Source of the DNA: a virus | Lineage: Duplodnaviria > Heunggongvirae > Uroviricota > Caudoviricetes | Strand: one strand, 5' to 3' | DNA length: 10,043 bases | Virus record (IMG/VR): IMGVR_UViG_2639762982_000013 | Span: 1 to 10,043 of that record | In this document: positions 1,268-10,043 of the stretch, piece by piece | Numbering within the stretch: position 1 is the stretch's first letter | How the letters are laid out: the number at the start of each line of letters is the position of its first letter | Notes under the pieces: model-generated | What the model saw: only the letters and a program-made list of their open reading frames with translations | Databases searched by the model: none | What the model was told of the DNA's origin: nothing | Position numbers and translations under genes: made by a program

Positions 1268-1765
1268 TCAGTACCACGATTTTTGCTTCTTCAGTGAATC
1301 GTATTGCTGTTCGCAGGATTCTCCTGCAATCCGATACTTTTCAGCCTCAGCTGCTGTTGCGTTGTAAACTCGATTGCTTTCTTCAAGCATGTCGGCGAGC
1401 ACACCGATGACCTTGCTGGCTGGCGTGCCAGTGGGGAAAGATCCGGTATAGTGTTCGGCGAGTCGCTTGGTTTTGTCAAGCTCGGCGCGCAGGCTGTCAG
1501 CAGCGGCATTAGCATGCTCAGCATCAACACGCGCCACATCGATACGGGATTGTGCTTCACGTTCAATTTGTGTTTTCTCCTGATCACGTTGTGACCTAGC
1601 CTTATCATTAGCCTGTTTCTGATCTTCCTGTGCCTGCGCATACCCGGCGTCGTACTGACGACTGCCGTGTGCATTCCAGGCTACAACTCCTGATATGACC
1701 AGAACAGCAAGCATCGCCATGATAACCAACTGTTTCCAGTATGCTTTTACGAATGCCCAGATCAT
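1268..1765 (-). CDS. Phage i-spanin (Rz-like inner-membrane spanin subunit)
   Basis: 165 aa with N-terminal TM helix, then charged helical periplasmic domain. Start overlaps endolysin stop (ATGA). Last gene of the lysis cassette and contains an embedded lipoprotein ORF. Confidence 0.7.
1291..1539 (-). CDS. Phage o-spanin (Rz1-like outer-membrane lipoprotein), embedded in the i-spanin gene in another frame
   Basis: Internal Met of the 127-aa alternate-frame ORF gives [17 protein letters not shown]…: signal peptide plus lipobox LTAC, then a Pro/Ser-rich short mature region, as in lambda Rz1. Fully nested in 1268-1765. Exact start uncertain (alternative Met at 1524); no strong SD. Confidence 0.55.
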   Translation of the reverse strand: MWRVLMLSMLMPLLTACAPSLTKPSDSPNTIPDLSPLARQPARSSVCSPTCLKKAIEFTTQQQLRLKSIGLQENPANSNTIH

Positions 1766-2391
1766 ACCGCCAGCGCCTTACTGGCAGTGATGTACCGAGC
1801 GCGCCGGTCGTCGATGCCGTTCCTGCCACCATTGATAATCAGAGTTACACGTGCAATATCGCCGGTATACTTCATGCAACCTTTGCTGGAGAAGAACCAC
1901 GCCGCGCTACGAGCCGCGTATTCGTCCTGCGCCAACAGTTCAGGATTCTCCAGCAGGTCCACTTTCAGGCCGTTTCCGCAATCACGATAGTTATTCAAAC
2001 CGGTAATCTGGATAAGTCCGCGGCCACGGTAATTCCAGCCATCACCAGAGGCATTGTTCCCCATGCGTTTGCTGTACACCAGATTGGCGATCGCTCTCTG
2101 GCGCTCGAGTGGCAATGGTGGTTCACCAGCACGGCGACCAAGTGCATTAGCCTGTCCCTGAGTGAGACGCCCAGCCCGAACGAAGTTAGCCAGTCCGGTG
2201 ACGCTGTAGTTGAAATTTTCCTGCAACCGGGTGAATCCACCAGACTCATGCCCGACCTGAGCAATAAACATTGCCTGATCTTCAGCTTTGCTGATACCAA
2301 ACTCTTTCATCGCAGAAGTTATATGCGAGAACCAGCGTGCGGCCAGCGCCTCGCTAATACCAGCAGCTCGCTGGAATTGTTTAATCTCCAT
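1762..2391 (-). CDS. Phage endolysin, glycoside hydrolase family 19 (chitinase class I-like)
   Basis: 209 aa. Motifs [21 protein letters not shown] and AAWFF typical of GH19 phage lysins. SD GAGG 8 nt upstream. Flanked by membrane proteins and spanins. Confidence 0.9.
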
Positions 2392-2689
2392 GTTTAGACC
2401 TCGTTATTTTAAAAATCTGCACGACGTTACCGCGCGTTTTAATAACCGCAGCTAGCATGACAGCGTTGATAATGACCTCAGATAAATCCACAGCCATTGG
2501 CGTACGTAACCAGATTGCATAGGCGACACGAACAGGAATACTGGCCGCAGCAACAATCAGGAAATAAGCAAGCCATCCTCCCCACCTTCGGTGTTGAGAG
2601 CCGTTACGCCGGAATGTGACAACGCGAATTGCTATGCCAGTGCAAATAACTGCATTGGTGATAAGCAAAAAAAACTCATGCGTTACCAT
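2381..2689 (-). CDS. Lysis-cassette small membrane protein (holin/antiholin-like)
   Basis: 102 aa with 2-3 predicted TM helices. SD GGAG 8 nt upstream. Overlaps the upstream gene by 14 nt and the endolysin start by 11 nt, indicating translational coupling. Confidence 0.55.
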
Positions 2690-3089
2690 CGTCTTTTCTC
2701 CCCGGAATTAACTCGCGTGGATTATCGGAACGGTGATAAAGCCATATACCAATTCGCACAGCGACAATTGACGACACAAATGCGCCAGCAGAGAAGACGA
2801 TCCCTTTCTCGAAAGAGTCCTGCGTGATGGTAGGGATCAGGCTGGCTACACCGATAAGGATGGATGCTGTAGGTTTGTAAAAGAGAAGGCCGCAGAGGAA
2901 GCTGAGCATAGACAGGAGAACCCGGCGATGAATGGGATACTCGATGGCTGAGGTAACAAAAATTACCGCCCCAGCCAAAGCTCCCAAAGCCACCTCTGGA
3001 GGAACCCCTGCTATCACCGCAGCAAGAGAACTCGCACTAAGCCACTGATTTAAAGACTCACTGGTTAGCTGAACTGACATAAAAAACAC
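2676..3089 (-). CDS. Putative holin (multi-pass membrane protein), first gene of lysis cassette
   Basis: 137 aa with 3-4 hydrophobic helices and a charged C-terminus. Position directly upstream of the endolysin. Start may be the second ATG at 3080. Family not recognised. Confidence 0.55.
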   Translation of the reverse strand: MFFMSVQLTSESLNQWLSASSLAAVIAGVPPEVALGALAGAVIFVTSAIEYPIHRRVLLSMLSFLCGLLFYKPTASILIGVASLIPTITQDSFEKGIVFSAGAFVSSIVAVRIGIWLYHRSDNPRELIPGRKDDGNA

Positions 3090-3301: not shown

Positions 3302-5065
3302 TTAAACAACAATTTTAAGGAAATTTGAAGCATCCTTATAGATGGTGCCCGCGGTGGCGCCGTTTATCTCCTCAAGCGTTTTTACATTCTTCAAAACCAC
3401 CTTGCCATCTTCCAGAAATTCAATGCATGGTGCGTCGTTGTTCATGTTTATTTTCAACGAACCAACAGCACTACCTCCGTTTCCGCTTATCCATTCAAGT
3501 GACGCAATAGGAAGTGCATTGCCGTTGTGATCTGTCCCTTGTAGCAAGATCCTTCCAGTTCCTACCCCTGGTATTCTGATAGCTGCGCGACCACCATCCT
3601 CTAAAACTACTTCCAAAATTTCTTTAGGATATTTTGTGTGCACTCCTACACGCGTCAGCGAACCACCACCACCAGGGACGACGGCAATACCTGGAATAAG
3701 CGATTCTGCAAAAAGCATCACTGAGTCTTTATGTGGATTGATTGCTGGCTTATCGTCATTAGTGCCGCTCCCTATCGCAATCGAACCACCATAAGCCTGA
3801 ATATTCTTACCTACAGCAAAAGAGCCATCTCCTGCCGCGCGAGTTCGATATCCAATGGCTGCCGCACCAATGCCATCACTTGCAACCCCGCCGGGGTCTG
3901 TAGTGTATCCCGGTCTGGCTTGTGTATAATAACCTGTTGCAAAAGCCGCCCTTGAAAGCGCTTCCGTTTCTTCACAGAATGCGGCAGATTTTGCTCCAAG
4001 AGCAATGACATTTTTCCCAAATGCAAAAGAGCAGTACCCCTCAGCATTTGGTGAGGTAATATGATCTGGGTCCCCAGTGGCAGAACCAGCACCACCGGCA
4101 ATAGATGCCACGCCGTACGTAACGCAGTCATGCCCGAAAGTTGTGGTGTATACCGCGAATGACGCACCGTTTCTGTTAAAAGATACTGAGTAATCACCGA
4201 TAAGAGCCGGGTTACACCATGAATTTCTCGGTGTAGGCAAGCCTCTCCAGAAGTTCTTTTCATCGTCAAGTGGTAGGAGATCGGCACCACCAATTCTCAG
4301 CCAACCTTTATCCTTATCAAAAGAAAAAGTGACGCCATCGGTTAAAGTAGATCCAACCGGTATACCGTAATTAACTTTTGTGCCAATCCTCTTAAGCCCG
4401 TCAGGTTGCGCCAGCAATAACAGAACATCTGCTGCACTACCGCTCTCAGGCAAGACCATAATGGACTCACCTGCATAATCATATGCATGGATCATATTTG
4501 CACGTTCTGCAGCAGGAGGGAGTTGCCGCGTAAATGACTCTGGAACCCTTAACGTGTGCAGATAGTTGTTGTTACTAATCGTGTCTACATAATTTTTAGT
4601 GGCAGCATCCTGCGGGTCTCGTGGGTCGCGCAGGTTGCGAATGTAATTCCCCAGCGCGTCGTACCAGTTAGCGATGGTTGATGGCTTGCGCAGCGCCAAG
4701 GCAAACCAACTGCGAACCTGCTGGATCAGCATCGTCAGTTTATCGAATGCGTCTTCATGCACCTCAGCGAAGAACTTACCCTGGTTGCGCAGATCGGTAT
4801 CCTGCGTAACCGGTAGCTCTCTTGATATAGAAATCTGATAACCGTTAGCCAACGCCTTCGACAGAATTACATTGCCGCCGTTATACCCTCCCGCACCAGT
4901 GACTATGTAATCAGTATCAAGAATCAGCTCTGTGATGTTCTCGTTCAGGTCAACAACCTGCACTACTAAATCAGATTTCTGGAAAATCCTGAAGGTATAA
5001 GGGAATGCCGTTGTAACACCGTTACCTGTGTATTCGTTGTGGTCAACTTCGGTTGAGACCGTCAT
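3302..5065 (-). CDS. Phage tail fibre / tailspike protein
   Basis: 587 aa. The N-terminal ~150 aa (MTVSTEVDHNEYTGNGVTTAFPYTF…DYIVTG) resembles the conserved T7 gp17-type virion-attachment domain. The C-terminal two thirds are Gly/Ala/Ser-rich with repeated beta-strand-like motifs (SFAVGKN, SIAIGSGT, IGAAAIGY), as in trimeric receptor-binding domains. Confidence 0.85.
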   Translation of the reverse strand: MTVSTEVDHNEYTGNGVTTAFPYTFRIFQKSDLVVQVVDLNENITELILDTDYIVTGAGGYNGGNVILSKALANGYQISISRELPVTQDTDLRNQGKFFAEVHEDAFDKLTMLIQQVRSWFALALRKPSTIANWYDALGNYIRNLRDPRDPQDAATKNYVDTISNNNYLHTLRVPESFTRQLPPAAERANMIHAYDYAGESIMVLPESGSAADVLLLLAQPDGLKRIGTKVNYGIPVGSTLTDGVTFSFDKDKGWLRIGGADLLPLDDEKNFWRGLPTPRNSWCNPALIGDYSVSFNRNGASFAVYTTTFGHDCVTYGVASIAGGAGSATGDPDHITSPNAEGYCSFAFGKNVIALGAKSAAFCEETEALSRAAFATGYYTQARPGYTTDPGGVASDGIGAAAIGYRTRAAGDGSFAVGKNIQAYGGSIAIGSGTNDDKPAINPHKDSVMLFAESLIPGIAVVPGGGGSLTRVGVHTKYPKEILEVVLEDGGRAAIRIPGVGTGRILLQGTDHNGNALPIASLEWISGNGGSAVGSLKINMNNDAPCIEFLEDGKVVLKNVKTLEEINGATAGTIYKDASNFLKIVV

Positions 5066-5241: not shown

Positions 5242-5260
5242 ATTGCATGGAGAAGATAAG

Positions 5261-5518
5261 ATGCAGCAGTATCACTATCCACTGGAAGACGGATTTACCG
5301 AAAGGATTCACACGCCGGGAGGCGTCAGGTCACTGGTGGAGGGATCGCACTTGATGAAATTACTCCGGGATCTCGATAAGGATGGATTTAATGTCGATGG
5401 CCCACTTGCCGAACTGACTGCACTGATTAACTACGTCACCAGCTCACAGATGTCTATGCTGGATCTGCAAACACATCTCGACTATTGTGCCGAACAATTA
5501 CGAAAACAAACCCGGTAA
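5261..5518 (+). CDS. Small SOS-regulated protein, candidate Tum-like antirepressor (homologous to C-terminal domain of the AntA protein at 6669-7325)
   Basis: 85 aa from the ATG at 5261 with SD GGAGAAG; the ORF track extends it to a TTG at 5243. Roughly 40% identity by eye to the last ~80 aa of the 218-aa AntA-domain protein (IH[TS]P[GS]GV…LM.LL..L..DG..V.G..AELT…D.QTH..Y). LexA box immediately upstream. Confidence 0.6.
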   Translation: MQQYHYPLEDGFTERIHTPGGVRSLVEGSHLMKLLRDLDKDGFNVDGPLAELTALINYVTSSQMSMLDLQTHLDYCAEQLRKQTR

Positions 5519-5522
5519 ATTT

Positions 5523-5542
5523 AAAGGCCGCAAGAGCGGCCT
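5523..5542. terminator. Bidirectional rho-independent terminator between convergent genes
   Basis: AGGCCGC-aaga-GCGGCCT stem-loop with A-rich 5' flank and T-rich 3' flank. Sits between the + gene ending at 5518 and the - gene ending at 5541. Confidence 0.6.
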
Positions 5543-6269
5543 ATCGTTTCGCTTTGTGCTCGTCCCAGCACGTTTTGCACCATGCCATTAAGCCATCCGC
5601 ATTTTGATTATTAGGGTAAAAGCTTGTTCGTTTTCTGCGGACATTACAAATTGGGCACCACTTCATATGGCGTGTATTCTTTGGGCCATCGAGACACCTT
5701 GCACACCACTTAGTCAATCCATCTGGATTTTTTGACGATTTCCTGAATTTTTCATATGGTAGGTTTATTCTGCATCGCAAGCACTGCTTGCTACCACTTG
5801 AAACTCTGTTAGCTGATTCTTCTTTTGGCGGCGATACAGAAGGTATTCTTGCTGGCTCTGATACTGCCTGAGGTGCTTTTTTAGATGACTGAGACGATAT
5901 GTCATCACCAGGGAATCTTCCATGATATGCCGGACGCGTTGACACTCCAGGTGGAAGCTCAGCTGTAAACGGCTTTGGCTGAATCAGTTGCCTCTCTTTT
6001 GCTAACTCCTGCTGTTTATAATATGTCTGGATTACCGCACTATCATAAGCAGGAGGTGCGGAAATATTAGGCGCATTACCTCCAGTTTTTTGAAACTGAG
6101 TAGAGGTGTGTTCTATCACCTGTGTACGATTAATCGTTATCTCCCCATCTTCGGTCTTTATCGTTTTGTTATGATTAACGACCGTACGATCAGAGATCTT
6201 AGTCTTGTTCTGGTTGATAACGTAAATAATCACCGCAACCACACCAACAACTATCCAGAAAACTTCCAT
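5541..6269 (-). CDS. Membrane-anchored protein with tandem C4 zinc-ribbon repeats (function unknown)
   Basis: 242 aa. N-terminal TM helix (residues ~4-20) followed by K/R (positive-inside), a Pro/Ser/Gln-rich linker, then two copies of CxxC-x16-DGL-x2-WC-x2-C. SD GAGGA 8 nt upstream of the ATG. Confidence 0.7.
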   Translation of the reverse strand: MEVFWIVVGVVAVIIYVINQNKTKISDRTVVNHNKTIKTEDGEITINRTQVIEHTSTQFQKTGGNAPNISAPPAYDSAVIQTYYKQQELAKERQLIQPKPFTAELPPGVSTRPAYHGRFPGDDISSQSSKKAPQAVSEPARIPSVSPPKEESANRVSSGSKQCLRCRINLPYEKFRKSSKNPDGLTKWCARCLDGPKNTRHMKWCPICNVRRKRTSFYPNNQNADGLMAWCKTCWDEHKAKR

Positions 6270-6668: not shown

Positions 6669-7325
6669 ATGAACGCTCAACTCATCCCCGTATTCAACGG
6701 CACTATATCTAACGAAACAGCCCTACTTTGTAATGCCCGCGATCTGCACGCTTTTTTAGGTGTTAAAAAGGTGTTTGCAGCATGGATTACAAATCGCATA
6801 TCAGAATACGAATTCATTGAAAATCAAGACTATATTTTGCTTTCCAATTTGGGAAAGCAAACATCTGGTAGAGGCGGCCACAACCGCAAAGAGTACCACC
6901 TCACCCTTGATACAGCCAAAGAGCTGGCGATGGTCGAGCGTAACGAAAAAGGTCGCCAGGTGCGACGCTACTTCATTGAATGCGAGAAACGTTTAAGACA
7001 ACAAGAAACAAAAGTGGAGAAGGTCTTGTCAGGCTTCATGCCCGCCATTATGGAGGCGATCAAGCTGGAAGACAAAAAAGAATACAGCGCCCCACTGAAG
7101 CCCGGCTACCGCAGCCTGATTCATTCGCCGTCTGGTGTTCTTGGACTGACGGAGAACTCACTGCTGATGAATCTGCTGAACCAGTTACAGGACGACGGGC
7201 ATGACGTATCGGGCGCGGCGGCGGAGCTGACCACCATGTTCTGCTACATCGTCGGTGTGAGCAAATGCCTGCGTGATATCCAGACGCACGCGGAGTACAT
7301 CAGCGACAAAGCAGGATTCTTCTGA
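6669..7325 (+). CDS. Phage antirepressor-like protein, N-terminal AntA-type domain with a C-terminal domain shared with the 5261-5518 protein
   Basis: 218 aa, SD GGAG 8 nt upstream. N-terminal region ([10 protein letters not shown]…[33 protein letters not shown]) matches the AntA/pRha-type antirepressor N-domain pattern. C-terminal ~80 aa is paralogous to the small SOS-box protein. Confidence 0.8.
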
Positions 7326-7391: not shown

Positions 7392-7406
7392 TTACCTTAA
7401 AGGTAA
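7392..7406. promoter_or_regulatory. Palindromic site D (TTACC-TTAAA-GGTAA)
   Basis: Perfect palindrome about 43 bp upstream of the ATG at 7449, the first gene of the low-GC two-gene module. Confidence 0.4.
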
Positions 7407-7448
7407 ACCTGTTTTTATTTTATACCTGTAACTTACCGGAGATTAAAG

Positions 7449-7775
7449 ATGACAAAACTTGGATTCGTGATGAGAGGTCCGGTAAGAAGCGGAACTCATG
7501 CAAAGCGTAGCAAGAGTCGTATTTTTACTGGTAAGGTTGTAGCACGTAAATCAGCTATTGGCTCGTTCAATAGTGAAAATGCGGCATTGCGCCATATTTT
7601 TATCAGCACAAAGCCAAGAGCATCCGCTGATGTGCATACAATGTCTATTCCTATCACAAAGAATATAAAGCGGATAAAAAAGCTCTCATCTGCAGAATCA
7701 AAAGAGATATCTTTCCGCCAGCTTAACTCATTAGAAACGCATATGAAGGAAGAGGAATTCGATGTTTTTGAGTGA
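7449..7775 (+). CDS. Small highly basic protein, candidate antitoxin / partner of the downstream YafO-like protein
   Basis: 108 aa, SD GGAG 8 nt upstream. Very K/R-rich N-terminal two thirds and an acidic C-terminal tail (EEEFDVFE). Overlaps the downstream gene by 14 nt. No recognisable Phd/YefM or other antitoxin fold from sequence. Confidence 0.5.
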   Translation: MTKLGFVMRGPVRSGTHAKRSKSRIFTGKVVARKSAIGSFNSENAALRHIFISTKPRASADVHTMSIPITKNIKRIKKLSSAESKEISFRQLNSLETHMKEEEFDVFE

Positions 7776-8274
7776 GTATAGCGGGAAGGTTATACCTACT
7801 GGTGAGTTTAAAACTGATGACTTTCTGATTTCGCTAAAAGATGCTTTTAAACAACACTGGCGTCATGGTCATCATCCTGATCTGGGAAAAGATACTCTTT
7901 TTGAAAGACCAGACGAAGTATTAGGCTTCCATCTCAGAAAGGTTCATGTCAATATTGGTGAATATGCATCATATTCATACTCATGTACTGAACAGTGTTG
8001 GGATGAGTGGTCATATGGATTGATTGATGAACAAGGAAATTACAGGCCAAAACCAACCAGTAACGCATATCTCATATATGCAGTCAATGAAATAAGAGAT
8101 GCAGCCTTACTAGCTTATTGGGACCCGCCCGCACACACCAAAGCTAACGCAAAAGTTTGGATGGATTCCGTATTGAATTTCACAAAATTATTTCATGAAC
8201 GAACGAATACAGCCCCACTTAGTAGAAATGTTTATCCGTGGGATTATTCGTACAAATCCAAAAAGCCTGCATAG
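7762..8274 (+). CDS. YafO-like toxin-domain protein (putative ribosome-dependent mRNA interferase)
   Basis: 170 aa with a strong SD (AGGAAGAGGA). From memory of E. coli YafO, the motifs align: PDLGKDTLFE / FHLRKVHVNI / AYLIYAV…AALLAYWDPPAHTKA versus YafO PDIFGRDALYD / FERVAHIHLA / AHLVYCQ…AWLLIAILKPEPHKLA. About 40 aa longer than YafO. Local GC is about 38-40% against about 50% in the flanks. Confidence 0.55.
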   Translation: MFLSEYSGKVIPTGEFKTDDFLISLKDAFKQHWRHGHHPDLGKDTLFERPDEVLGFHLRKVHVNIGEYASYSYSCTEQCWDEWSYGLIDEQGNYRPKPTSNAYLIYAVNEIRDAALLAYWDPPAHTKANAKVWMDSVLNFTKLFHERTNTAPLSRNVYPWDYSYKSKKPA

Positions 8275-8355
8275 TAGTTTTTTATGGACGAAACAAAAGT
8301 CAGTGCTACACTCATTGACGCCACATTGAGGTGGCTTATAGATGGAAATGTCACA

Positions 8356-8517
8356 ATGAAAAAAGCATTTGCTGCACTGTTCGTTTTGTTGTCTCTGGTA
8401 GCTTCAACTCAGGCCTTTGCCGGTCGTTGTCAGCACGACAGCGATACTGCCGCTGACGGCTCCCGCTGCGGTGGGCGTTCTGCGGATTCCCGCCCGGGCG
8501 GTGGTGGCATTCGTTAA
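8356..8517 (+). CDS. Small secreted Cys/Gly-rich peptide (hypothetical)
   Basis: Internal Met of the 77-aa ORF gives MKKAFAALFVLLSLVASTQAFA/GRCQ…, a canonical Sec signal peptide with AxA cleavage site and a ~31-aa mature peptide containing 2 Cys and a Gly-rich tail. Weak SD; local GC is high. Confidence 0.4.
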   Translation: MKKAFAALFVLLSLVASTQAFAGRCQHDSDTAADGSRCGGRSADSRPGGGGIR

Positions 8518-8522
8518 AAACA

Positions 8523-8540
8523 AGGCCGCGAAAGCGGCCT
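8523..8540. terminator. Bidirectional rho-independent terminator (mainly for the minus-strand membrane-protein gene)
   Basis: AGGCCGC-gaaa-GCGGCCT, near-identical stem to the terminator at 5523-5542. On the minus strand it is followed by TTTTTAAC. Confidence 0.55.
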
Positions 8541-8548
8541 GTGACATG

Positions 8549-8845
8549 TCACACTCTTTTTCTGAATGATAGCCATTCGAAAAATGATGACATTCCACCG
8601 CAGACAATAGCAAAGATGATCCCACCAAAGAATAGAAGGCCAGCCTGCCACCACTCCCACCGCCATACATCCACAGCGCCAACCATACCAACAATCGCTC
8701 CAACAAATGGAATATAGCTCACGATGAAAGCAATGGGGGCTGCAATTATCCAGTGCAATCCCCACCATGATTCAAGCCCAGCCATAATTGCTGCCAACTG
8801 AAAAAGACCAACGACGATATAAACAATGAATCCTATCGCTTGCAT
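8549..8845 (-). CDS. Small Trp-rich integral membrane protein (3 predicted TM helices), function unknown
   Basis: 98 aa, hydrophobic throughout with a WRWEWW motif. The terminator lies immediately downstream. A possible 50-codon hydrophobic ORF with a GTG start (8858-9010) sits 14 nt upstream. Confidence 0.6.
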   Translation of the reverse strand: MQAIGFIVYIVVGLFQLAAIMAGLESWWGLHWIIAAPIAFIVSYIPFVGAIVGMVGAVDVWRWEWWQAGLLFFGGIIFAIVCGGMSSFFEWLSFRKRV

Positions 8846-9040
8846 GTAGTTACCTATTTACCCAGTAAAAATCAGAGGCCTCCCCTCAATAAGGCTTGCA
8901 ACAAGAACTACTCCCTGCACAACAAAGATGAACCAGCAAATAGCTTGAGTCTGAGGGTTAAGAAAATATTTGTAGCGGTCAATAAATAACAGTCCACCAG
9001 AAATTATCACACTCAAAATAATTAAAAACACAACACTTCC

Positions 9041-9865
9041 TTATTGCGGAGTGACATCCTGAGGTCGCCACCAGTATGTCTGGTTAAACTCTTTCTTCGA
9101 ACGTTGCTCCATTTTACGCAAATAGCCTGGTGAAAAATACTCCTGCATCTGGTTAAAGATCATGTGATCGAGAGCCGCCTTCAAGTACCAGAGATTCGCA
9201 CCAGGCATCAAACCTTTCCCCAGCTTCACCAGATCACCACCAGTCTGCTCACTCTTCCCTTCCACAGCATTTAACGGTATGCCCTGAGCAATCTTCACTA
9301 CGTCATCAACCAGACCAGCTACCGGGCCAAGCATCGACGCCAGCGCGCCGCTTCCGTACCTAGTGTGATCTGACAATAAAAAGTCACCGTAAAGGCCAAG
9401 ACCACCACCTTTCAGTAGAGCACCAAGCCAAAATTTAGCAGCATCTTCTCCTGTCATCTCGCGAGGATTACGACCAGACGCAAGGTCGTTAAGTTGCTGC
9501 GACAAAGCGCCAAGAATGGTCGTACTGGCAATAAACGTCGCAATATATGCCGCACGCCCACCAGCAGACGGCATACCCATAGCGCGTGACCAGTGACGCA
9601 TAACCACCGAGATAGGGAACGATTTAAACAGGAAAACACTTCTCGTTAATTCACCTTTCCATGTTCCACGCTGAATACCAGAACCGGTTATCAGTTGCTC
9701 ACGTGCTCCCGGTGTAATAACAGCCATATCAACTTCTTCAGTTACGGCACCGAGCAGTTTACGCATTGCCTCAAATTTCACGCGTTCAGGCTCACCAAGA
9801 TGTTTAACTGCTGAATCAGGGATACGCATAATGCTTTCCGGTGTCAGCATCGTATTATTACCGTT
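9041..9865 (-). pseudogene. 3' fragment of a phage protein (possibly virion/ejection-associated) truncated by IS2 insertion
   Basis: The 283-aa ORF listed from 9892 takes its first 9 codons (MSGNIGANP) from inside the IS2 terminal repeat. The native reading frame continues upstream across the IS boundary at 9865/9866, so the N-terminal part of the gene lies beyond IS2. No family recognised. Confidence 0.55.
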
Positions 9866-10043
9866 TGGATTTGCCCCTATATTTCCAGACACCTGTTATC
9901 ACTTAACCCATTACTGGCTTGCTGCCGTAGATATTCCCGTGGCGAGCGATAACCCAGTGCACTATGCGGATGCCATTCGTTATAATGCTCGAATGCCTCT
10001 GCAAGGTTCTTTGCTGCCGTTAACCCGTCTGGTTTGGGCATGA
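9866..10043 (-). mobile_element. IS2 (IS3 family), partial: right terminal repeat and 3' end of the transposase; the element continues beyond the window
   Basis: The reverse complement of 9866-9908 reads GGTTAAGTGATAACAGGTGTCTGGAAATATAGGGGCAAATCCA, which matches the IS2 right end as I recall it. The adjoining ORF encodes an IS3-family transposase C-terminus. Confidence 0.8.
9877..10043 (-). CDS. insD: IS2 transposase OrfB (InsD) C-terminal end, partial
   Basis: Minus-strand translation …[54 protein letters not shown] with stop at 9877-9879. The motif [13 protein letters not shown] is characteristic of the IS3-family integrase C-terminus. The 5' part is outside the window. Confidence 0.8.

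Follow-up and report, generated by a model that had tools for sequence, protein, structure and literature searches.

A small peptide gene with a predicted signal peptide and two small membrane-protein genes at one terminator in an epsilon15-like prophage of Escherichia coli

Phage T4 encodes Sp (spackle) and Imm, which are periplasmic and membrane superinfection-exclusion proteins. Phage morons, such as those of lambda and HK97, are autonomous cassettes that consist of a promoter, a gene, and a terminator. Class II microcins and bacteriocins are encoded in pairs with their immunity proteins. In phage P22, sieA and the immI antirepressor genes lie between the ejection-protein gene 16 and the tailspike gene 9. 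The P22 SieA protein sits in the inner membrane and prevents the injection of DNA, escape mutations are found in the ejection proteins gp16 and gp20, and the tailspike gene 9 is located downstream of gene 16 (PMC10883804).

The window analysed in this work is the whole stretch of 10,043 nucleotides of the IMG/VR record IMGVR_UViG_2639762982_000013. The window is an epsilon15/phiV10-like (genus Uetakevirus) prophage of E. coli. Three small genes in the window encode a 53-aa peptide precursor on the + strand and two membrane proteins of 57 aa and 98 aa on the - strand. The layout is similar to that of P22, where the slot that separates the tailspike gene from the last ejection-protein gene also holds an inner-membrane protein gene on its late side, with antirepressor genes nearby. 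SieA differs in having 162-164 aa and three predicted transmembrane domains, compared with 57 aa plus 98 aa here, and it is expressed from the prophage whereas the genes here look coupled to the late operon. General searches of Pfam, NCBIfam, PHROGs, PADLOC, and fold databases named nothing similar to SieA. Phage TL-2011b has Arc and Ant at the place that matches the sieA/immI slot. The T4 proteins are likewise a small Sec-exported periplasmic factor and a small inner-membrane protein, which is an analogy of location only, as they share no homology with the genes of the window and the genes here are not co-inherited. The peptide gene resembles the morons in that, along with its upstream element and its terminator, it travels from one phage backbone to unrelated ones and is located at operon ends. 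It differs from them because its family is also an ordinary chromosomal gene far outside phages, and its promoter here is only predicted. The window also resembles the class II microcin and bacteriocin pairs in that a small peptide gene adjoins small membrane-protein genes. The differences are a Sec signal peptide here instead of a double-glycine leader, no transporter, convergent genes, and independent distribution.

Our preferred reading, to which we assign a probability of about 0.5, is that two independent units meet at one bidirectional terminator in an accessory hot spot of a defective prophage. One unit would be a moron that carries the peptide, the other would be the membrane-protein tail of the late operon, and superinfection exclusion is the preferred function.

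Features of the prophage and the three genes

The features identified in the window are shown in Table 1. The left part of the window contains the junction of E. coli yfgH-yfgI with the prophage. The fragment of the virion protein gene comprises about 275 last codons of a gene for an 824-aa protein. Its product matches PHROG 684 at profile positions 555-831 of 840, and aligns with the C-terminus of 824-aa proteins from phiV10 and E. coli prophages. The C-terminus of a transposase is readable on the - strand in the insertion sequence that follows. This element is present in 19,275 copies in E. coli genomes, where it is annotated as 'IS3 family transposase'. It is probably IS2, and the putative boundary at 9866 was placed from the IS2 terminal repeat. 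As a multicopy IS3-family element interrupts the virion gene, this copy of the prophage is defective. The Rfam search over 7400-10043 returned nothing credible.

Table 1. Coordinates of the features in the window.
Feature	Position	Strand	Remarks
Rz-like gene, GH19 endolysin, and two holin-type genes	1268-3089	-	Leftmost in prophage; complete lysis cassette
Tailspike gene	3302-5065	-	
gp19-like gene	5243-5518	+	
242-aa protein	5541-6269	-	One hydrophobic N-terminus; Cys-rich repeats
AntA/Bro antirepressor	6669-7325	+	
108-aa ORF overlapping YafO-like 170-aa ORF	7449-8274	+	
Candidate extended -10 box TG-C-TACACT	8304-8312	+	Conserved TAnnnT; putative promoter
5'-UTR hairpin GCCAC-ATTGAG-GTGGC	8320-8335	+	About 20 nt before start codon; 4-5 bp; covariation
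Signal peptide codons, 22 aa, MKKAFAALFVLLSLVASTQAFA	8356-8421	+	Predicted cleavage
Mature 31-aa peptide GRCQHDSDTAADGSRCGGRSADSRPGGGGIR and stop codon	8422-8517	+	Conserved core; dN/dS
Terminator hairpin	8523-8540	both	7-bp G+C-rich stem; GAAA loop
Perfect palindrome TGTGACATGTCACA	8540-8553		Contains stop codon of 98-aa gene; read directly
98-aa Trp-rich integral membrane protein	8549-8845	-	PHROG 3075
57-aa two-helix membrane protein	8858-9031	-	GTG start; SD AAGGAAG at 9036-9042
Internal virion (ejection) protein gene, last one, truncated 3' part	9041-9865	-	epsilon15 gp17 / phiV10 p20 type
End of IS3-family insertion sequence	9866-10043	-	Interrupts virion protein gene; runs off window

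The first-pass annotation of the sequence had described a precursor of about 53 aa with a signal peptide, and this is borne out by the ORF at 8356-8517 on the + strand. The position 8284 from which it had started the feature is the ATG of a longer 77-aa frame and is not the start of the peptide. The MKK start at 8356 is common to the homologues in other genera and the RefSeq annotation, and the N-terminal extension from 8284 is not shared with the homologues in other genera. The 31-aa mature part is Gly-rich as described (8 Gly), whereas Cys-rich was an overstatement for a peptide with 2 Cys only. The Trp-rich 98-aa membrane protein on the - strand was described correctly, with 8 Trp, a GRAVY of 1.25, and three hydrophobic stretches. 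The hydrophobic ORF upstream of it with a GTG start is also real. It does not have 50 codons from 9010 as proposed but encodes 57 aa from the GTG at 9031. Its AAGGAAG motif lies 4 nt upstream of this GTG and shares bases with the virion gene's stop codon.

The three genes were compared with their counterparts in Klebsiella phage BUCT711, where dN/dS is 0.064 for the peptide gene, 0.019 for the 98-aa gene, and 0.17 for the 57-aa gene, at a dS of 0.76-1.86 across the three. The synonymous sites are thus heavily substituted while the proteins are kept, which indicates that all three genes are genuine. All three are under purifying selection.

The peptide, its family, and its transcription unit

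In the leader of the 53-aa precursor, residues 2-3 are KK (n-region), residues 1-23 form a hydrophobic stretch, and there is an A-x-A site. The basic n-region, the hydrophobic core, and the small residues at -3/-1 are those of a Sec signal peptide cut by signal peptidase I. The -3/-1 residues stay small family-wide (A/S/V-x-A, before G) and the rest of the leader is variable. A variable leader with a conserved A-x-A site before G, beside a near-invariant mature core, supports export of the peptide. A lipoprotein, including the type of the colicin lysis proteins, was considered and rejected, as the family reads A-x-A-G-[N/R/P]-C with 1-2 residues between the site and the Cys. The peptide matches PHROG 14503, which is named 'membrane associated protein', and its AlphaFold model is of moderate confidence only (pLDDT 72.6). 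The NCBI name for the peptide is 'transmembrane anchored protein'.

The core of the peptide, C-x4-D-x-A-x-DGSRCGGRSADSRPGG, is near-invariant in Enterobacterales and recognisable in Rhizobiales, cyanobacteria, and Vibrio. In the Enterobacterales members, both the core CQHDxDTAADGSRCGGRSADSRPGG and the A-x-A site before G are near-invariant and the leader varies freely. A scan of one genome per species identified 57 loci. Those outside Enterobacterales include loci in Mesorhizobium, Rhizobium, Bradyrhizobium, Agrobacterium, Methylobacterium, and Devosia, as well as in Vibrio, Bacteriovorax, and several cyanobacteria. When 1.84 billion representative proteins were searched with a profile (E <= 0.001), the result was about 469 clusters from Proteobacteria and Cyanobacteria, among which at least one listed match (P0172) looks spurious. 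The typical member is a precursor of about 50 aa that ends soon after RPGG. Some carriers of the module are larger exported or membrane proteins, and one of them has the module beside a bacterial SH3 domain. Acidic residues and a DGS motif are conserved in the family. We conclude that the family appears to consist of stand-alone, exported mini-peptides with two Cys. The target of the peptide must be common to many Gram-negative envelopes.

The peptide, 35 family members, and 10 larger proteins that carry the module had no match in Pfam and NCBIfam, and the family profile had no match in the sequence search of PDB. The literature text searches on 'transmembrane anchored protein' with phage and on 'DGSRCG' found no paper. 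Two other motifs were considered and rejected. An Excalibur-like or DxDxDG calcium site had no profile match, and neither had an Ivy-like C-x-H-D loop, of which the His is not conserved family-wide.

These observations also bear on a different role for the peptide. It may be a lysogenic-conversion or housekeeping envelope factor with no part in phage defence, which binds metal or the cell wall or modulates a periplasmic sensor and is perhaps anchored by its leader. We regard this as unlikely, though worth keeping in mind. The NCBI name implies an uncleaved leader, and the chromosomal copies of the peptide in non-phage contexts, widespread in Rhizobiales and cyanobacteria, argue for a role more general than phage exclusion. 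The occurrence of the module in larger exported and membrane proteins, once beside the SH3 domain, and the conserved acidic residues and DGS motif also agree with such a factor. On the other side, no curated family or solved structure was matched, and the conserved A-x-A site before G favours cleavage over the leader-anchored form.

The peptide gene looks like a self-contained moron. The alignment of ten contexts of the cassette exhibits similarity from about 70 nt before the start codon to just past the terminator. The cassette has its own terminator and is present in unrelated phage backbones, namely Uetakevirus, TL-2011b-type, Klebsiella, and Pectobacterium prophages. At the matching place, 16 of 17 diverse upstream regions have a TAnnnT hexamer that precedes the hairpin of the 5'-UTR by 7-9 nt; in the window it is TACACT at 8307-8312 with TG before it, and it may serve as the -10 box. 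The consensus promoter scans reported no promoter for the peptide gene. A second candidate promoter, TTGACG-16-TATAGA (8315-8342), was discarded as other genera do not conserve it. In TL-2011b, EC.W1-9, BUCT711, and K. pneumoniae ATCC 13883, the cassette is immediately preceded by an intrinsic terminator, so in those four contexts transcription must start within the short conserved segment. The window's own upstream terminator is degenerate, which makes read-through from the YafO-like operon possible.

The 5'-UTR hairpin is maintained across 17 sequences, where 89% of cells are paired compared with 24-64% when the partners are slid. Both sides have changed in 4 of 5 pairs in a compensatory manner, and the covariation score is 0.515 compared with at most 0.215 when slid. 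The hairpin also appears in the computed fold. In E. coli, an mRNA can be stabilised by a stem-loop located at its 5' end or close to it (ompA type), and the hairpin at 8320-8335 may have the same effect. In the serum study of phiv142-3 (PMC7724020), two genes of the upstream operon, orf8 and orf10, were induced and the peptide gene orf11 is not listed, which is weak evidence that the peptide gene is a unit of its own. The study lists up-regulated genes only and carries no expression value for the peptide gene or the 98-aa gene.

The membrane-protein genes and the slot after the ejection-protein gene

The late virion operon ends, after the last gene for an internal virion protein, in the tightly spaced 57-aa and 98-aa genes. 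There are 9 nt between the stop of the virion gene and the 57-aa gene, and 12 nt separate the 98-aa gene from the end of the 57-aa gene. A Shine-Dalgarno sequence precedes each of the two genes, which for the 98-aa gene is an AGG 7 nt before its start. The 57-aa gene also follows the 824-aa gene by about 10 nt in all four homologous loci that were inspected. No promoter-like site was found upstream of the two genes on the - strand within the window. This gene order recurs in Klebsiella, Salmonella, and Cronobacter prophages.

The homologues of the 57-aa protein form 13 clusters of 56-58 aa from E. coli, Citrobacter, Klebsiella, Salmonella, and Enterobacter, and they start at the matching residue. 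The 98-aa family has 52 clusters, of which every named member is in Enterobacterales, and it exhibits conserved Trp/Gly motifs. The AlphaFold model of the 98-aa protein has four helices (pLDDT 91.8), and the fold searches with this model gave no significant match. The family has no Pfam domain. For the two membrane proteins, a match to Phage_holin_5_2 was below threshold (E = 0.027, 15.2 bits against a gathering cut-off of 29.2). PADLOC gave no match, and NCBIfam and PHROGs gave only families of 'unknown function' or sub-threshold matches.

The slot after the last ejection-protein gene encodes an envelope protein in every phage and prophage listed here. It encodes gp18 (64 aa, two hydrophobic helices) in epsilon15, p21 (46 aa, two hydrophobic helices) in phiV10, a 66-aa protein in a Cronobacter prophage, a 128-aa lipoprotein in a Salmonella prophage, and lipoproteins of 137 aa and 138 aa in E. 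coli prophages. Both gp18 and p21 resemble the 57-aa protein in position, strand, tight upstream coupling, small size, and two hydrophobic helices, and their genes end at the same convergent terminator as the membrane genes of the window. They differ in having no recognisable sequence relationship with the 57-aa protein, and the 98-aa gene is absent from both phages.

The coupling of the two genes to the late virion operon might be taken to mean that their products serve the lytic cycle of the phage, either in lysis timing as holin-like or antiholin-like proteins or as helpers for membrane insertion of the ejection proteins. The weak match to Phage_holin_5_2, the weak and non-significant likeness of the 98-aa model to pore domains of K+ channels, and the very strong purifying selection on the 98-aa protein point in the same direction. 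However, a complete lysis cassette with two holin-type genes is located elsewhere in the prophage, the holin match is under its threshold, and the membrane genes are optional, with unrelated small membrane proteins or lipoproteins substituted for them in relatives. A lytic-cycle role is thus rather unlikely. If the late operon were transcribed only in the lytic phase, the 57-aa and 98-aa proteins would not protect the lysogen. It is also observed that the insertion sequence cuts the late operon in this prophage, which counts against exclusion.

Two units at one terminator and their possible functions

The first-pass annotation had the peptide gene on the + strand and the 98-aa gene on the - strand end at one terminator, and this agrees with the hairpin at 8523-8540. 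The hairpin is followed by TGTTTTT on the - strand, and on the + strand by a second small hairpin (the palindrome at 8540-8553) and then CTCTTTTTCT. The z-scores of the terminator fold are -3.55 for the + strand and -2.16 for the - strand. A hairpin lies 3' of the peptide gene in all ten aligned contexts with varying stem sequence, and the palindrome TGTGACATGTCACA is retained beside the terminator even with a different convergent gene.

The peptide gene and the membrane genes are two separate units that have the terminator alone in common. Of 80 IMG/VR contigs whose peptide is identical, 21 have the 98-aa gene, 19 have the 57-aa gene, and 78 have the gp19-like gene. The two membrane genes travel together, as both are present in 19 of the 21 contigs with the 98-aa gene. 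Among 5,426 complete E. coli genomes, the stretch 8200-9100 was found by megablast in 557 and covered to at least 80% in 143, while the peptide cassette is present in 498 and the two membrane genes in 216. The stretch is also present in phages HEMP4 and phiv142-3. Different genes face the peptide gene: Ant does so in TL-2011b, a lipoprotein gene does so in other E. coli prophages, and unrelated genes do so in both EC.W1-9 and Klebsiella phage ST512-KPC3phi13.3. In Pectobacterium the peptide gene is inserted alone, on the + strand, among tail genes, and in another E. coli prophage it lies 3' of a lysis cassette and a RelB/YafQ pair. Cronobacter prophages have a 99-aa homologue of the 98-aa protein that follows an 849-aa virion gene by 2 nt and faces HicAB, with no peptide. 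Outside Enterobacterales the peptide gene is solitary. The sampled contexts in Rhizobiales, cyanobacteria, and Vibrio are not phage-like, and the clustering of neighbours around the 57 loci found no recurring neighbour gene.

In the preferred reading of two independent units, the first unit on the + strand would comprise its own promoter, a stem-loop positioned at the mRNA's 5' end or close to it, the 53-codon gene, and the terminator. The peptide would be exported by Sec and cut after AFA to give a 31-aa periplasmic peptide, which is probably closed by one disulfide (Cys25-Cys38). The peptide would act alone on a cell-envelope component that is widely conserved, and would be neither a bacteriocin nor a partner of the membrane proteins. 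That it acts alone is suggested by the absence of a recurring neighbour (57 loci, 469 clusters) and by the non-phage contexts in Rhizobiales and cyanobacteria. The second unit on the - strand would comprise the last ejection-protein gene, the 57-aa two-helix protein, the 98-aa inner-membrane protein with three predicted segments, and the terminator. The 57-aa and 98-aa proteins may confer superinfection exclusion by stopping the DNA of incoming related phages on its way across the periplasm and the inner membrane, and the periplasmic peptide possibly acts at that barrier too. An internal protein of the target phages carries a lytic transglycosylase domain. Since the position of P22 sieA matches the layout of the window, exclusion at the step of DNA entry is the best available hypothesis. 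Superinfection exclusion is our best guess of function, judged from the position of the genes and the predicted location of their products, by analogy and not by homology.

A bolder version, which we consider improbable, is that the 53-aa product founds a phylum-spanning family of Sec-exported, disulfide-looped mini-peptides with the proposed core C-x4-5-D-x-A-x-DGSRCG-x-R-[SA][AS]-x-x-RPGG, of which enterobacterial prophages have captured one as a periplasmic effector that works alone, and that the slot after the last ejection-protein gene is a general 'envelope-defence slot' of epsilon15-like phages. Such an effector might, for instance, inhibit those ejection proteins of incoming podoviruses that cut peptidoglycan or form channels.

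The peptide/immunity module suggested in the first-pass annotation, in which the secreted peptide harms cells and the 98-aa or 57-aa membrane protein (or both) protects the producer, is highly improbable: the genes are adjacent with a common terminator and the combination of a secreted peptide with small membrane proteins resembles bacteriocin loci, but the peptide occurs without the membrane genes in 59 of the 80 viral contigs and in most E. coli carriers, which argues against its toxicity, many other bacteria have it as a lone gene, members of the 98-aa family are found where it is absent, the genes are convergent with no co-transcription, and a partner for export or processing is absent. 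Adjacency round a shared terminator in an accessory hot spot of a phage does not imply a functional pair.

The three genes are ordinary accessory cargo of a well-known type of prophage. What is modestly new is the membership of the peptide in a broad family described in no curated library. The peptide cassette is a common gene, as it is present in about 9% of complete E. coli genomes. Its module spans enterobacteria, rhizobia, and cyanobacteria and is absent from Pfam, NCBIfam, and PDB, which makes it a candidate for a new family of small proteins. Small envelope proteins of prophages often determine the range of other phages to which a strain is open, and in some cases its behaviour in a host.

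Genes around the antirepressor

PHROGs 450 and 15539 are matched by the gp19-like protein and also by the AntA antirepressor, in its C-terminal third. From these shared matches, gp19 looks like a stand-alone copy of the antirepressor C-terminal domain. A repressor binding site is annotated in the epsilon15 record between gp19 and the tailspike gene. In the window, the gene of the 242-aa protein is an insertion that separates the gp19-like gene from the antirepressor. This protein has a hydrophobic helix at its N-terminus and two Cys-rich repeats at its C-terminus, which weakly match the Stc1 and endonuclease VII/Lar-like zinc-ribbon families (PHROG 6762).

Coordinates of the features
Feature	Locus	Position	Strand	Remark
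gp19-like 91-aa protein	window	5243-5518		
242-aa protein gene	window	5541-6269	-	between gp19-like gene and antirepressor
AntA antirepressor	window	6669-7325		
108-aa and 170-aa ORFs	window	7449-8274		14-nt overlap
Palindrome TGTGACATGTCACA	window	8540-8553		perfect, 14 bp; adjoins terminator
IS3-family insertion sequence	window	9866-10043	- (transposase)	interrupts 824-aa ejection-protein gene
Slot lipoprotein	L076	3201-3614	-	predicted
Slot lipoprotein	L069	3194-3610	-	predicted
Slot lipoprotein	L016	4418-4804	+	predicted

Cargo genes and the insertion sequence

The 170-aa ORF is a YafO-family toxin according to RefSeq, and its match to Pfam YafO_toxin is sub-threshold (E = 0.00095). The two overlapping ORFs resemble a toxin-antitoxin pair borne as cargo. 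This position is occupied in other phages by HicAB, RelB/YafQ or DUF2335.

The slot 3' of the ejection-protein gene holds, in other prophages, predicted lipoproteins of 128-138 aa as alternative cargo, with the lipobox LISAC or LLVGC. One type is common to E. coli and Salmonella prophages. The prophage in the window is defective because its ejection-protein gene is split by the IS3-family element, which we take to be IS2-like from its terminal repeat. The transposase is oriented toward the genes of the 57-aa and 98-aa membrane proteins, and read-through from the element might drive both.

The DGSRCG module and the palindrome

The DGSRCG module of the exported-peptide family is also carried by a subfamily of 220-280 aa (P0144, P0153, P0158, and P0184). 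These proteins consist of a signal peptide, the module, an RNPDTDW motif, one transmembrane helix, and an uncharacterised cytoplasmic domain of ~150 aa, in that order. The module may be an ectodomain in them.

The palindrome is kept irrespective of which gene converges on it, and the stop codon of the convergent gene often lies inside it. Possibly it marks a boundary at which modules are exchanged.
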